A stretch of 64,000 nucleotides of DNA from an uncultured Hormoscilla sp. GTDB taxonomy: Bacteria > Cyanobacteriota > Cyanobacteriia > Cyanobacteriales > Desertifilaceae. Position 1 is the stretch's first letter. Each line of letters begins with the position of its first letter. The stretch is from NCBI GenBank assembly GCA_963921275.4, contig OZ001293.3, positions 1,632,001-1,696,000 of the forward strand. Direction: 5' to 3'. The translations under genes were made by a program, and so were the position numbers. The notes under the pieces are model-generated. The model made no database searches and was not told the origin of the DNA. It worked only from the letters and a program-made list of their open reading frames with translations. Below, one piece after another: positions 31,909-40,826 of this stretch.

Positions 31909-31981
31909 CGAGCACGGAGGGATTTGAACCCCCGGCACCCAGAACCGGAATCTGGTGCTCTATCCACTGAGCTACGTGCCC
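31909..31981 (-). tRNA. trnR: tRNA-Arg(CCG)
   Basis: GGGCACGTAGCTCAGTGGATAGAGCA-CCAGA-TTCCGGT-TCTGG...GGTTCAAATCC-CTCCGTGCTCG, 73 nt. Confidence 0.97.
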
Positions 31982-32062
31982 TGATATTTTCCTACTATAG
32001 CACTCTGGGGTAAAATTGCAACAATTTTTGGTCAGGATTGACGAGAATTTAAGATTATTAAA

Positions 32063-34711
32063 CTAAGCTAGGGGGTCGCCCCCCCGACTCGTCTTCAGAA
32101 CCGGACGTGAGACTTTCACCTCATCCGGCTCCTCAGTGACGCCACCCTTGTCACGGGTACGGCTGTGACTGCCGTCGCTGGCAGTTTTTATGTAGTGACA
32201 GTGCTTGTGTAATAACTGTAGGTTGTCATACCGGTCTTTACCTCCTAATGAAAGGGGCTTGATGTGGTCAACTTCCCACTTGTCACTGTCCAAGAACGTT
32301 AGTTCGCAGTGTTGGCATTTTCCCTTTTGCCTCTTTAGTAGCGTTGCTACTCTCTTACTTAGCTCGGGGTTTTTGCCTAGTCTCGTACTCCAATATGTAA
32401 GGTTCCCGTCATATGGGCTTGCTGTTCCTTTCACTTTTATGTGTCTGACTATCTCAGTTTCAGAGTGTTTGTACAGCGTTATCTCTCCCTCTCCTGCCTT
32501 GTACCGGAATCGCCATTTACCACCCTGGTCTACAGACCAGTACTTATAGGCTATCCAGTGACTTGACTTATTGGGATGTCTCTTTTTGGCCCATTGCCAT
32601 AGGATGTTCCATAGGTAGGTATCCATGTCTGTGTAAGTTTCCTTACTCACCACGGTCCTGTAGTAGTTGGACCATCCCCGTATTATCGGGCCTAGCCTGC
32701 TTATCAGGGTCGCTTGTGGTGCTGCTTTATGGCTGGCTACCACCTCTGCTAGCCGTTCTTTATGCTTCCCTATGGACTTTTTACTGGGTTTGATTAGGGT
32801 TTTGAATCCTAGGGGTGTTCCGTTAGTTGATTTACCGGTTCTGTATTCACCCACCTCATATTGCCTTATGTTGAACCCCAGGAAATCAAATCCCGGTTTT
32901 TCTCCCTTTAGCGTATGAGTTATTTTTGTCTTTTCGGCTTTCAACTCTAGCCCCATTCCTTTTAGCCACTCTGCCACCACCATCTGCGCTTTGTCTATCA
33001 TCTCCTTGCTCTCATGCATTACAACAAAGTCATCGGCATATCTGACTATCGTCAGTATCTACTTTTCCTTTTGTGTCCTGACGAGTTTCTTCACTGCCTC
33101 CTCTAACCCGTGGAGGGCTATGTTGGCTAGTAATGGTGATATGACTCCCCCTTGGGGAGTACCCGCCTCGGTTGCATGCCAGTTCCCTTTGTCCATTACC
33201 CCGGCTTTTAGCCATGCCCGTATTTGCTTACGGATTGGTGATATGGTATTCAGTTTTTCCAGTAACGCTCTGTGGTCTATCTTGTCGAAGCATTTCGCGA
33301 TGTCAGCATCCAATACCCACTTGGGTTTATATCTGATGCTTAAGAATATCGCTTCGATTGCATCGTGGCATCCCCTTCCCGGTCTGAACCCGTAGGAGTT
33401 CCCTTCCATATACGCTTCCCACTCGGGTTCGAGCGCAATCTTAAGGAGTCCGTGCGATTCGTTCTAGCCTAACGTGGTCAAACACGGAACGCTAGCCCGG
33501 TTTCATTAGCCGGGAACTCTGACCGCATGGGGGTTAAATTCCCCTCCCCCCAGGTACGGGGGTGACACCGGTCCTCGGTGCTACGAAGCGACATCATCGT
33601 GGTGCTAAGCGAGGACTCAAATGTAGGATAACTGGCAGCCTAAGCCGGTGACGCCGCTAGGAAAGATATCCAAGGTTAGAGCAGGCAAACATGTGCAAGC
33701 CTCGTTATAAGGAACCAGCGAAATAAGGCTATATGCGCTGGCCTAAAAAGGAAATGGTAGCTAGTATTAGTTTTAGACTCTGGCTAATATAGTACTCAAA
33801 TAGCTCCCGGGGTATAGTGTGGACCTAAAGGTATCGCGAAATGTTGTTAGGGAACGAAGTAACCTCTCGTGTGCTGTCCATCAGGACAAGTTAGATGTTA
33901 AGCGCAAGCCACGGGGGGAGGGATGGCCCAAGAAGCGAATGCCCGGGGTAATTCCTGGGATAACATCTACAGTAATGTAGATGATGCTGGGTAGCCAGCG
34001 CTGACGTGGGTCGGTGATACTAGGAAGCTGCTGGAATGAGTAATCCTAAAAAGCCACGGAACTAATCCGAAACGCAAGTGGAGGATAAGGTATGGATAAC
34101 TGGTAAAACTGACTTGAAAATGGTGATACTAACGGTTATCAGAACAACCACTCGCTAAACCAGGAAAGGGAAGAAAAGACAGGCGGCAAGGGCTAACGGA
34201 AGTAATTCCTATTAAGTCTACCTATGAAAAGGGCCTAGTACCCAGTAGCCGGATGCGGTGAAAATCGCAAGTCCGGTTCCGAAAGGGAGGGTCGGGAAGC
34301 GATTCCCGGCTCGACCCCATCCCTGTGTCGCGCGGTCATACATCGTTGGTATTCCTAAAGGACGCTTTTCCTCTCTCCCTGGCTTCGGTATCCATACACG
34401 CCGTGTAGGTTTGGCCTTGTTTGAGATTTCAATCTGTCCTACCAGTTCTAGGCGTTGCTTCGGGGTCAGTGCTTTCACACCGTCCACTCCAGCCGTCTTT
34501 TTTCCCTGGTTATCTTGTGTTACCTGTCGTACCGCTAGACTTTTGGCAGCCCGGGATTTTACCAGTAACCTTTGGAGTCTGCGAACTGGTCGCTTATTAC
34601 GCCTTCCATTGCCGCTCTGTAAATTCGCTTTTGCAACTTAAAGACTACCCGCTCTAGCTTTCGCCAGGGGGTATCCTTCCATTCATTCATCGATTTTGAC
34701 ATCGTGCTCAT
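32063..34711 (-). pseudogene. ltrA: Group II intron RT/maturase/HNH, inactivated three times
   Basis: Motifs RPLGIP, PQGGVISPLLAN, YADD and HNH (DHIKP...NLQLLH). Carries a 2-nt insertion near 34598, the nested intron from 33452, and TAG at 33059-33061. Confidence 0.92.
33452..34322 (+). mobile_element. ORF-less group II intron inserted antisense in the RT gene
   Basis: 5' GTGCG at 33452; domain V AGCCGGATGCGGTGAAAATCGCAAGTCCGGTTC at about 34247-34279; domain VI ending GACCCCAT at 34320. Removing 33452-34322 restores DRATQGLLKIALEPEWE. Confidence 0.92.
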
Positions 34712-36337
34712 GACGTATGCATTGCTACTTACAACTTCACAATTGACGTTACCGTGAGGGCGTCAGCATATCCTATCCATTACAGATAGGCGTTAGCTTC
34801 TCCACGAAATCTCTCCCAGATACAACCTGCCTAATGAAAGCAGATGTTGCGCCTGTGGTGGCTACTCAACCTATCGACCGGCGGTTGAGAGTATGTACCT
34901 GGTTTACTTCGTTCCTCTAGATGATTGGTCGTAGTTTTAGGTGGGCTCTCTATGCCGGGTTTTATTGTCAGTGCTTATTGGTCGGAGTCAAAACCGCCAA
35001 TGACCGATATCCTTTCCCTTTTGGACCAGCGTTTCAGCCTTTTCGCTGGTTCCAAGTGACGACACTTATGAGCCTTCACTTTCGTTCATCATGACTACTT
35101 GCTTGACGATGACCGGCTTAGGCTGCTAGTCAGGGCGCCTTTCCTACCCGCTTCACAGATTGATGCCATCGCTACTGTGGGGTAAGTGCTGTCACGAGAG
35201 CACCTGGAGGGGTGGGCTTTCACCACCATCATCTAAAAGTTGTCAGGGCTAATGGAACCCTGCTAATGGTCCCCCACCGGTGTCCCTCTGTTGGTTCACC
35301 GGTAGTTTACACTAAACGAATCGCACTCGACTATCTGTGGCCATAAGGTGGGCATGGCCCACCCGACAACAGTTATTTCAGCTGAAAGCTAGTACCCCGG
35401 TAGCATCCTTGAAAAGAAGTCAGTTTGGTACTAGTGTACTGCTCCAGTCTCTGCACTAGCAAAGGCTTGTATTCCAAGGTATTGAGCCATTTATAGGAGA
35501 AATGACCTGGACGATACCTAATCCTTTTATGAATATACTTGTCAACGGGAACTCCGTCAACCCCTGAGATGCTTTGCTGGTGGTATCCATTGAGCATGAT
35601 GTACTCGACTTCCACTCCTGGGGACAGGGTGACATTCCAATGTACCGGTTCATAGGAGGACAGAGCCAGAATAATAGGTTTCTCTTGACGCTGCACCTTC
35701 ACCTCCACCAGTCCCGTGGGATGATATCCAGCACTATGGTCCGATCGCGCCTCATATACACTAATTACATGTAGCTCTTTAGAACCCATAGTTCGGGCAA
35801 AATAGGCCGAAAAATCTCCTGAACCACCGTCACCGCAGGCGACTATGGGAGTTTCTGTTGCAGCTTGCTGCTGTTGCAGGATCGGCTTTAACCAATACCA
35901 ACCACCGACACCCACAGCAGCGATCAAAGCCGCACCCACCCCGATCGGGATAATATTTTTCAGGTTGCGGAAACCCTCAGAGTTTGTGAAGCGCTCCAGG
36001 TTATTCTTGAGCGCGTCACCTGTTTCTTGGAATAAATTATTGTTGCCATCCAGAGAGGCTAACAAGGCCAAACTTTCCGGCGCTTCCAGTAGACTTTGCA
36101 CATCCGGACCCAGACCTACATAAAGATTTCTGCTGTGCCGGTCTAAAAGGAGCCAGTATTGGTCTGCTGCGCCCAGGTTATAGTCTTGCACTGAGGGACT
36201 GACTTGGGGGTGTTGCAGGAAAACCTGCCAGGCCACACCGTTACCGGTGCCGATATTTTCCCCATCATTGTACATGACTTGGTTGAGTTGGGGTTCCCAG
36301 TGCCAAGCTACCCAACGACTATTAGCTTGATAGCCTA

Positions 36338-38428: not shown

Positions 38429-40826
38429 ATTAAACTAAGCCAGTCCGTCACCGGACCGACTCGTCTTCAAAACCGGACATGAGACTTTCGCCTCATCCTG
38501 CTCCTCGGTCACGCCACCCTTGTCATGGGTACGGCTACTGCCATCGCTGGCAGTCTTTTTGTCGTGGCAGTGTTTGTGTAGCAACTGTAGGTTGTCATAC
38601 CGGTCCTTACCTCCTAGTGAAAGGGGCATGATATGGTCAACTTCCCATTTGTCACTATCCATAAACGTTAGTCCGCACTGTTGGCATTTTCCCTTTTGCT
38701 GCTTGAGTAGCGTTGCTACCCTTTTACTCAGTTCGGGGCTTTTGCCTAATCTTGTGCTCCAATATGTGAGGTTCCCGTCGTATGGGCTTGCGGTCCCTTT
38801 CACTTTTACGTGTCTGATTATCTCAGTTTCGGAGTGTTTGCGTATCTTCATATCACCCTCTTTTGTCTTGCTTCGGAATCGCCATTTAGCATCCTGGTTT
38901 ACAGACCAGTATTTATAGGTTATCCAGTTACTTAACTTGTTAGGGTGCCTCCTTTTGGCCCATTGCCATAGGATGTTTTATAGGTAGTTGTCCATATCGC
39001 TGTAAGTTTCCTTGCTTACCACTGTCCTAAAGTAGTTTGACCATCCCCTTATTATCGGGTTTAGCCTGCTTATTAGGGCCGCTTGTGGTGCTGTTATATG
39101 GCTAGTTACCATTTCTGATAACCGTTCTTTATGCTTCCCTATGGACTTATTACTGGGTTTGATTAGGGTTTTGAATCCTAGGGGTGTTCCGTTTGTTGAT
39201 TTGCCGGTTCTGTATTTTCCCTCTTTATATTGCCTTATATTGAATCCTAGGAAGTCGAATCCCGGGTTTTCTCCATTTAGCCTGTGGGCTATCTTTGTCT
39301 TTTCGGCCTTCAACTCAAGCCCTATTCTTCTTAGCCACTCTGCCACCACTGTTTGCGCTCTGTCTATCATCTCCCTGTCTTCATGCATGATCACAAAGTC
39401 GTCTGCGTATCTGACTACCGTCAGCTTTTGCTTTTCCCTTTGTGTCTTTGCTAATTCCATTACTGCTTCCTCTAACCCCTGTAGGGCTATATTGGCTAGC
39501 AGTGGGGATATGACACCCCCTTGTGGCGTTCCTGCCTCAGTTGTGTGCCATATCTTCTTGTCAATCACCCCGGCTTTTAACCATGCCCGTACTTGTTTAC
39601 GGATTGGTGACGTAGTATTTAATTTTTCGACTAGCGCTTTGTGGTCTATCCTGTCGAAACATTTCGCAATATCTGCATCTAATACCCATTTGGGTTTCTG
39701 TTTAATGCTGCTGAATATTGCCGCAATTGCATCGTGGCATCCCCGACCCGGTCTGAATCCGTATGAGTTCCCCTCCATATATGCTTCCCATTCGGGTTCG
39801 AGCGCAATCTTGAGGAGCCCTTGATTCGCGCGGTCGTGCATCGTGGGTATTCCTAAAGGACGTTTTTCTTCTCTCCCTGGCTTAGGAATCCATACACGAC
39901 GTGTAGGCTTAGCCTTGTTTGAGATTTCAATCTGTCCTACCAGTTCTCGGCGTTGCTTTGGGGTTAGTGATTTCACACCATCCACACCGGCTGTCTTCTT
40001 TCCCTGGTTATCTTGTGTAACCCGTCGTACCGCTAGACATTTGGCAGCCCGGGAGCTTACCAGTAACCTTTGGAGCCTGCGAACTTTTTGCTTATTGCCT
40101 TCTTGTGCCGCTCTGTAAATTCGTTTTTGCAACTTAAAGACTACCCGTTCCAGCCGAGGCCAGGGGATATCCTTCCATTCATTCATCGATTTTGACATCG
40201 TGCTCATGACGTATGTATTGCTACTTACAACTTTACAATTGACGTTACCGTGAGGGCGTCAGCATATCCCATCCATTACAGAAAGGCGTTAGCTTCTCCG
40301 CGAAATCTTTCCCAGATATAACCTGCCGAATGTAAGCAGATGTTGCGCCTTTGGTGGCTGCTCAACCTATCGACCGGTGGTTGAGAGTATGTACCTGGTT
40401 TACTTCGTTCCTCTAGATGATTGGTCGTAGTTTTAGGTGGATTCCTTATGCCGGGTTTATTGTCGGTGCTTATTGGTCGGAAAAGGAACCGCCAATGACC
40501 ATTATCCTTTCCCTTTTGGGCCAGCGTGTTTAGCCTTATTACGCTGGTTTGTCGTAACGACACTGTAAATCTTTGCTTTCGCTCACCGTGACTACTTGCA
40601 CGCTGCGCGAAAAATCGGCGATGACCGGTTTAGGCTACCAGCCAGGGCGCCTTTCGTACCCGCTTCACGGATTGATGCCATCGCTACCGTGGGGTAAGTG
40701 CTGTCACTCCTGCACCTGGAGGGGTGGGCTTTCACCACCATCATCTAAAAGTTATCAAGGCTAATGGAGCCTTGCCAGTGGTCCCCCTTCGGTTATCACC
40801 GGTGGTTTACACTGAACGAGTCGCAC
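38429..40826 (-). mobile_element. Group II intron B, sibling of intron A
   Basis: 5' GTGCG at 40826; domains V/VI at about 38435-38505; 3' end CTTAGTTTAAT at 38429; co-linear with intron A. Confidence 0.92.
38435..40207 (-). pseudogene. ltrA: Group II intron RT/maturase/HNH with one in-frame stop
   Basis: Complete RT motifs including YADD. TAA at 38978-38980 where intron A has TGG; the downstream HNH ORF is in the same frame. Confidence 0.92.

Follow-up and report, generated by a model that had tools for sequence, protein, structure and literature searches.

A 64,000-nucleotide stretch of the genome of an uncultured Hormoscilla sp. (contig OZ001293.3, positions 1,632,001 to 1,696,000; the window, whose numbering is used below) holds one group II intron inside another: positions 33452-34322 of the plus strand are an 871-nt group II intron without an open reading frame (ORF), and this intron lies antisense in the reverse transcriptase (RT) ORF of a second group II intron, intron A (35326..32057, minus strand). 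We think it very probable that the inner element is a mobile, non-autonomous intron that was reverse-spliced antisense into the RT gene of intron A, guided by pairing between its exon-binding sites (EBS) and the target. An earlier note made from the sequence of the window alone had described a complete ORF-less ribozyme on the plus strand within the minus-strand RT ORF, and the Rfam match to domains V and VI, the covarying fold and the Pfam matches to the RT pieces all agree with that description (coordinates in Table 1).

When both strands of the insert were searched, the Rfam model Intron_gpII (RF00029; domains V and VI) matched the plus strand only, at 34244-34320, with a score of 46.4 bits against a gathering score of 40; the minus strand gave no Rfam match, the permissive scan included. 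Domain V has the form expected of a group II intron, a 34-nt hairpin with an AGC triad, a 2-nt bulge and a GNRA loop. The insert begins with GTGCG at 33452, which agrees with the GUGYG start of group II introns, and its longest ORF has 53 residues and no Pfam match; nor did we find any RT tblastn high-scoring segment pair inside the 139 full-length copies of the element described below. A consensus fold built from 20 family representatives (69–92% identical by blastn), in all of which the start GTGCGA was invariant, had 169 predicted pairs, and 84 of these showed a compensatory change in at least one sequence, i.e., both sides were altered and pairing was kept. The single-sequence fold of the insert was better than those of 20 out of 20 shuffles (z = -5.8). 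Rfam models for domains I to IV reached at best 22 bits on the insert (gathering score 36), and it was the covariation, not this below-threshold score, that served as our evidence for the six-domain fold. On the plastid domain V model RF04356 the insert scored 31.7 bits, under the gathering score of 61, and intron A passed RF04357 (64.9 bits against a gathering score of 53); an intron of the chloroplast-like IIB kind would be the best explanation of the insert.

With blastn, 139 full-length copies at ≥97% identity were found in the genome from which the window comes (7.03 Mb, seven contigs), all but five of them above 99.4%; clustering put the family at 145 copies. All 139 begin GTGCGATT and 138 end TCGACCCCATCC, the remaining copy differing in its last two bases; the shared ends are GTGCG...CCCCATCC, and the flanks are unrelated. 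Five copies are inserted in other copies of the element at AAGTCT/ACCTATG (a slash marks the insertion point), where the sequence before insertion is known and flank and end have not a single base in common. A search with 150 nt from each side of the window insert found 37 paralogous RT sites, of which 33 were empty (reading GAGTCC/CTGTG and variants), three held 871 nt and one held 1742 nt. The empty sites show that the insert entered precisely, and together with the 139 copy ends and the self-insertions they indicate that the mobile unit is exactly 871 nt long and ends ...AUCC, with its 3' boundary at 34322.

This 3' end departs from the AY that usually closes a group II intron. The earlier note had seen the two additional C residues and offered two accounts of them, an unusual end or a 2-nt duplication; the 139 copies and 33 empty sites rule out the duplication, and the unusual end stands. 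In 20 ORF-less families domain VI closes with CGACCCC, which is followed by four family-specific bases (GACU, GACC, UAAU, AUCC, GGCU, AGCU or AACC), the last of them always a pyrimidine; the odd 3' end is a trait of the lineage. The Rfam match stops at 34320 because the model ends at the internal AU. The candidate branch-point A at 34314 is the ninth base counted from the 3' end, where the usual distance in group II introns is 7–8 nt. Altered 3' termini are listed among the known group II variants in a review (PMC4424553).

Removing 33452-34322 in silico yielded a minus-strand ORF spanning the junction, of 235 codons here and of 567 codons in a sister locus, and the restored junction reads ...DRATQG/LLKIALEPEW, as in intron B, an uninterrupted sibling intron in the window. 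The earlier note was thus right that excision restores an intron B-like frame. Its further claim, that the insertion had disrupted a maturase gene, did not hold up, because the RT gene of intron A had probably lost its function beforehand. After codon 37 the RT frame is shifted by a 2-nt GT insertion (34600-34599) that is common to nine loci, four occupied by the 871-nt intron and five unoccupied paralogues; its presence in the five unoccupied loci makes the frameshift older than the insertion, which therefore did not kill a working gene here. In addition, at 33061-33059 the window RT reads TAG in place of the CAA of intron B; the sister copy is without this TAG, and its ORF runs on for 462 codons.

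The fold of a group II ribozyme is strand-specific, and an RNA that carries only the complement cannot splice the intron out. Since the RNA of intron A carries only the complement of the inner intron, established group II biology implies that the insert should not be spliceable from it, as the earlier note had also reasoned, and the lack of a minus-strand Rfam match in the insert is in keeping with this. With the inner intron on the plus strand and the outer intron on the minus strand, the arrangement differs from that of a same-strand twintron.

The 139 copies occupy 114 distinct sites, which share the motif AACCTT-N3-GAGTCT/A, and the element has thus recently spread to many sites with no RT of its own, as a mobile ORF-less intron does. 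A position matrix of the 114 sites was informative only at -15..-9 (AACCTTA), at -6..-1 (GAGTCT) and at +1, where A was found at 83 sites, G at 17 and C at 7; the preference for A or G at +1 fits a U at EBS3, a position that is itself predicted only from the target bases. Pairing of 5 or 6 of 6 bases with EBS1 was found at 97 of the 114 sites as compared with 1.5% of 200,000 random positions, pairing of 5 or 6 of 6 with EBS2 at 58 sites as compared with 4.9%, and both at ≥5 of 6 at 53 sites as compared with 156 of the 200,000. A covarying stem closes the loop that holds EBS1 (33775-33780), and from one family to the next this loop is hypervariable, which is expected for EBS1. A shared motif that pairs with the EBS in this way would be the signature of RNA-guided reverse splicing into DNA, and the complementarity of the site consensus to EBS2 and EBS1 points to entry by this route.

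Insertion is blind to gene orientation. After in-silico excision, 41 of the 139 copies were sense and 42 antisense in a spanning ORF of ≥100 codons, and 56 had no spanning ORF; the same census of 5000 random positions gave 1690 sense, 1716 antisense and 1594 without an ORF. The 6.88-Mb contig has too weak a GC skew to reveal a bias between replication strands, and copy orientation in 500-kb bins has no clear switch.

The entry that we propose would begin with the 871-nt intron RNA and an RT supplied in trans, and the RNA would have reverse-spliced into plus-strand DNA at a site pairing with EBS2 and EBS1, which here lies on the strand antisense to RT motif 2 of intron A; we infer that target-primed reverse transcription followed. 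Target choice depends almost wholly on ~13 nt of RNA–DNA pairing and takes no account of the orientation of the gene, and the conserved RT-coding sequence in dozens of paralogues therefore offers repeated landing sites. The outer transcript could not remove the antisense insert, and the RT frame would stay split; the domains of the outer ribozyme are left intact because the insert lies in domain IV.

The antisense insertion in the RT gene of intron A is one of many recurrent cases, not a singular accident. Members of the 871-nt family were found at three positions inside RT ORFs: antisense at codon 130/131 in motif 2, the window position (4 loci with 5 copies, one of them a tandem pair); antisense at codon 191/192 of the C-terminal piece, before HNH (13 loci, two of which have a further copy nested inside the insert); and sense at codon 176/177 (2 loci). 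The window position is thus occupied at 4 of 37 paralogous sites. At IBS1, the intron-binding site (IBS) that pairs with EBS1, all four occupied sites read GAGTCY as compared with 7 of the 33 empty ones (Fisher ~0.005, with paralogues that are not independent), and most empty RT sites, intron B included, read GAGCCC or GTAACCC, which mismatch EBS1.

Two variants of the element differ at 34281-34282, in the linker between domains V and VI: 118 copies have 'TC' and 21 have 'GA'. Both occur at the window RT position, 'TC' at C1:614359 and C1:825805 (C1 coordinates being those of the contig) and 'GA' here and at C1:3400469. The outer RT flanks of three distinct occupied loci are only ~90% identical, and the inserts are 99.7–100% identical; with the two variants this argues that the same RT position was struck independently at least two or three times. 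The window copy and the copy in the sister composite, both 'GA', are identical to 10 other copies, and across the 19 shared variable columns 92 of the 139 copies do not differ at all; such a star-like pattern is typical of a very recent burst.

The sister composite (C1:3399444-3402736) raises the question of whether the insert arrived separately in the two places. It is 99.67% identical to the window over 3294 nt (35348..32055), and the identity is bounded by the borders of intron A plus 22 nt of upstream target, as would be expected if intron A together with its antisense passenger had moved here as one 3.27-kb non-autonomous intron with RT supplied in trans. An insert in domain IV, which is known to tolerate cargo, would not hinder such movement, and at the second RT position eight near-identical outer copies are occupied and one is empty. 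However, all 11 differences between the composites fall in the 2423 nt of the outer part; the 871 nt of the insert have none, where ~4 would be expected at equal rates (Poisson ~0.02), although gene conversion among 139 copies could have erased differences in the insert. The same RT position was also struck independently by the other variant. Private variants common to only the two inserts were not seen. The distribution of differences mildly favours two later insertions, and we regard movement of the composite as possible but doubtful.

A function for the antisense copies, in which transcripts of the outer introns, with 871 nt complementary to every sense transcript of the family, would repress the family as a trap while the loss of RT genes cut the supply of helper and so braked the burst, could be argued from the 17–18 copies that lie antisense in RT-bearing introns as compared with 2–3 sense, and intron A, flanked by an ORF and a tRNA gene that share one strand, is plausibly transcribed. 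Yet those 17–18 copies occupy only three antisense positions, orientation outside introns is ~1:1, ~23 long RT ORFs remain, and the burst, to judge by the 92 identical copies, looks unchecked; we find this function improbable. As for an assembly artefact that misplaced a repeat copy into the RT gene, the element is indeed a 139-copy repeat, and in public runs the unitigs built from short reads stop at its ends. It is hardly credible all the same, as the arrangement recurs at four loci with different flanks and exact junctions, one of them with a tandem pair, the 6.88-Mb contig resolves all copies, and the target site in the window obeys the pairing rule of the family.

Several points sit less comfortably with antisense reverse splicing by a mobile, non-autonomous intron. 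The window target has C at IBS3, which is non-consensus (7 of 114 sites), and C in place of T at position -1 of IBS1. The census of sense and antisense copies used ORF length only, with no annotation, and 25 of the 139 copies have a target site in common with another copy, some of which may be duplicated composites. A similarity between the D4a regions of the inner intron and intron A was not found (score 17; shuffles 16.4 ± 2.3). In four public runs, all of short contigs, no record crosses one of the two junctions with ≥31 bases to each side of it; one record of 135 nt (34296-34430) reaches only 27 nt into the intron and has three differences, and it may come from a paralogous locus.

With no RT of its own, the 871-nt intron would need a helper. 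By tblastn with the RT pieces of the window we found 96 RT loci in the genome, ~23 of which keep ORFs of ≥540 codons. Domain V of the 'AGGAG' type is present in ~61 copies, 60 of them abutting an RT ORF, and domain V of the 'AGTAG' type in ~337 copies, with another 19 matches that start within domain V; none of these 356 'AGTAG'-type and partial copies has its own RT, and 3 of the 337 merely adjoin an RT intron. The cores of the inner intron and intron A are homologous (local score for domain I 60 vs. 21 ± 2.5 for shuffles, and for domain V 51 vs. 16). It is plausible that the 871-nt intron depends on the very RT family that it strikes.

The genome as a whole is heavily loaded with introns. 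A domain V profile gave 480 matches at E ≤1, of which 424 scored ≥25 bits; in the Rfam search of the genome the best 150 of 867 candidates were scored. Besides the 871-nt family there is an 835-nt ORF-less family of 72 copies and ~40 smaller ones; the ~356 ORF-less domain V copies fall into ~43 families. Intron-like sequence amounts to 529,868 bp, or 7.5% of the genome, all of it on the large contig and none on the six small contigs. The lineage is present in all four other species of the genus, the closest copies being 92% identical, and a first look at those species gave 8 to 198 intron candidates as compared with 465 here, several of the assemblies being fragmented.

The closest known system is that of Thermosynechococcus elongatus, with 28 introns, among them the ORF-less TeI3 and the RT-encoding TeI4 (Mohr, Ghanem and Lambowitz 2010, PMC2882425). 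As here, these are cyanobacterial IIB families that differ in their EBS and read their targets almost entirely by base pairing, the A residues at -15 and -14 of our target recalling A-15/A-14 noted for TeI3c/4c; in T. elongatus, too, the RT-encoding members are fewer than the ORF-less derivatives that depend on them, the RT ORFs of other introns have a conserved site at which ORF-less introns insert, and inner copies are identical in diverged outer ones, which was read as independent insertion. In contrast, the inner intron of T. elongatus has the same orientation as the outer, lies between the first two ATGs and is spliceable, the 28 introns compare with ~424 domain V matches here, and no RT-encoding intron in the present genome has the domain V type of the ORF-less lineage. 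Nested twintrons were also described in Methanosarcina acetivorans (Dai and Zimmerly 2003, as summarised in PMC4424553), and compared with that summary the RT-gene insertions here are mostly antisense. In Trichodesmium, where sequential splicing was shown for nested introns (Pfreundt and Hess 2015, PMC4649490), there is likewise a cyanobacterial intron within an intron, and ORF-less introns depend on maturases in trans, but the antisense placement that we describe excludes sequential splicing. Arthrospira platensis resembles our organism in having a genome of the size usual for a filamentous cyanobacterium and very many chloroplast-like and ORF-less group II introns; strain NIES-39 was given at least 150 introns, 71 with and 79 without RT (Fujisawa 2010, PMC2853384), and a later survey counted 101 in A. 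platensis, more than in any other of 2,086 representative genomes (Miura 2022, PMC8919778), whereas here there are 424 domain V matches and 96 RT loci, a single family has 139 copies, and intron-like sequence takes up 7.5% of the genome. The word 'antisense' does not occur in the main texts of Mohr 2010, Miura 2022, the review PMC4424553, Pfreundt 2015 or Gomes 2025 (see below), antisense nesting is not mentioned in the main texts of Fujisawa 2010 or Miura 2022, and our literature searches, which covered main texts, found neither a larger intron count nor antisense nesting.

The mechanism is the ordinary one for group II introns, used here by an ORF-less family that is unusually prolific and has a short target read purely by RNA. 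Three features are new: RT genes are struck repeatedly at the same positions by antisense nesting that is unspliceable, a whole lineage has a 3' end other than AY, and the burst is of great size. An RT-gene family of autonomous introns has been damaged at recurrent antisense positions, a configuration not described in the main texts of the twintron papers compared. The intron behaves as a retrotransposon that strikes genes in either orientation about equally, and its 114 sites form a natural target-site data set for a non-autonomous IIB intron that needs ~13 nt of pairing, with nothing else detectable. The standard account of how introns could have flooded early eukaryotic genomes takes the proliferation of group II introns as its model, and to our knowledge natural bacterial examples of it are few and small. 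Given the simple target rule, the 871-nt intron and the intact RTs of the same cell would be a candidate gene-targeting system for cyanobacteria. It is a speculative and quite unlikely extension that parasite is here set against parasite, a gene-less lineage with no RT-bearing relative striking the RT genes that it needs, so that loss of helper and antisense traps would limit its own burst; were it true, this would be a bacterial counterpart of the conflict between short and long interspersed nuclear elements (SINE/LINE) and of transposon-trap clusters, and the outer transcripts would contain a long antisense stretch perfectly complementary to the family as a whole.

Table 1. Positions of the inner intron, its target, intron A and neighbouring features in the window
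Feature	Position	Strand	Basis or remark
ORF-less group II intron, 'GA' variant of 139-copy family	33452..34322	+	Copies, Rfam domains V/VI, covarying fold
5' splice-site consensus GUGCG	33452..33456	+	Sequence; invariant in 20 representatives
EBS2, AAGGUU	33672..33677	+	Complements AACCTT, the consensus at -15..-10 in 114 distinct sites
EBS1, AGACUC	33775..33780	+	Complementary to the -6..-1 consensus GAGTCT
Domain V	34246..34279	+	Rfam alignment
Domain VI	34285..34318	+	Rfam alignment
Candidate branch-point bulged A	34314	+	Rfam alignment; GA bulge conserved in 20 families
Family-specific 3' tail AUCC	34319..34322	+	Copy ends; family comparison
IBS2, AATCTT	33437-33442	+	Window target; 6/6 pairs to EBS2
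IBS1, GAGTCC	33446-33451	+	Window target; 5/6 pairs to EBS1
IBS3, C	34323	+	Window target
Outer RT-encoding group II intron A	32057..35326	-	GTGCG at 35326; 3' end ...GTTTAAT matches family ends
RT ORF piece 1 (RVT_N)	34559..34711	-	Ended by shared 2-nt GT insertion, 34600-34599
RT ORF piece 2	34323..34487	-	Up to ...DRATQG at junction
RT ORF piece 3 (RVT_1)	33059..33451	-	LLKIALEPEW to premature TAG, 33061-33059
RT ORF piece 4 (end of RVT_1, GIIM, HNH)	32063..33019	-	ORF and Pfam
tRNA-Arg(CCG)	31909..31981	-	75 nt downstream of intron A
Sibling intron B	38429..40207	-	RT ORF 40207-38978 and 38851-38435; domains V/VI 38429-38505

Intron A is 3270 nt long, or 2399 nt when the insert is left out. 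Its 5' end lies ~46 nt past the stop codon of an upstream ORF and ~14 nt past the GC-rich hairpin GGTGGGCCATGCCCACC that comes after this stop (region 35327-35372, minus strand). Rfam placed domains V and VI on the minus strand at 32031-32133 for intron A and 38429-38505 for intron B, and in both introns the RT frame crosses domains V and VI (32063-32133 and 38435-38505, both minus strand) and stops 6 nt before the 3' end. The span given for intron B leaves out the 5' part of its ribozyme, which lies further upstream; its empty site reads GAGCCC/TTGATT.

Further copies of the 871-nt intron form exact head-to-tail arrays, a pair at C1:824934-826675 (-), which occupies the same antisense RT position as the window copy, and a triple at C1:5447656-5450268 (+). 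In E. coli, tandem integration of EcKTE56.groEL was found to proceed by entry of a second copy at the 5' junction of the first, EBS3 (U) pairing as a wobble with the first G of the resident intron (Gomes et al. 2025, PMC12584367). The arrays here are likewise exactly head to tail, and G at +1 in 17 of 114 sites fits such wobble re-insertion; they are natural, in contrast to the experimental case with its one homing site. Template switching by the RT and intron circles were set aside as sources of the arrays in favour of this experimentally shown re-insertion at the 5' junction by the EBS3 U–G wobble.

The five self-insertions lie in sense at the element's own position 768/769 (AAGTCT/ACCTATG) and are true twintrons (C1:1325884-1327625, 4741852-4743593, 5180205-5181946, 6029574-6031315 and 6410256-6411996); in two of the five the recipient copy itself lies antisense in an RT gene, which gives three levels of nesting. 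Four copies are antisense in the ribozyme parts of other ORF-less introns (C1:5991126-5991996 (-), 4875572, 5732318 and 2265002), one near domains V/VI and three at positions ~64–90 of domain I. Six others are antisense at one position in a gene that is present in several copies and encodes a large leucine-rich-repeat protein (ORF >900 codons), e.g., C1:2173255-2177125, with identical flanks AGGATCT/AAACTCAG, from either repeated homing or duplication after insertion. One more copy (C1:1631385-1632255, minus strand) overlaps positions 1-255 of the window by its first 255 nt, and after in-silico excision it is sense in a 246-codon ORF.

Of the 24 public runs listed, 20 hold part of the stretch, and these come from 17 studies; the single RNA run listed had a fraction of 0.05 of the sampled words. 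In runs X5-X19, which have 15 other organism codes and belong to different studies, ~40–70% of the sampled words were present, a share close to that of the 871-nt element in the query, and in runs X5 and X6 the element occurs as the 'TC' variant, with the flanks of the window absent. To judge from these matches, the 871-nt element is widespread in related strains.

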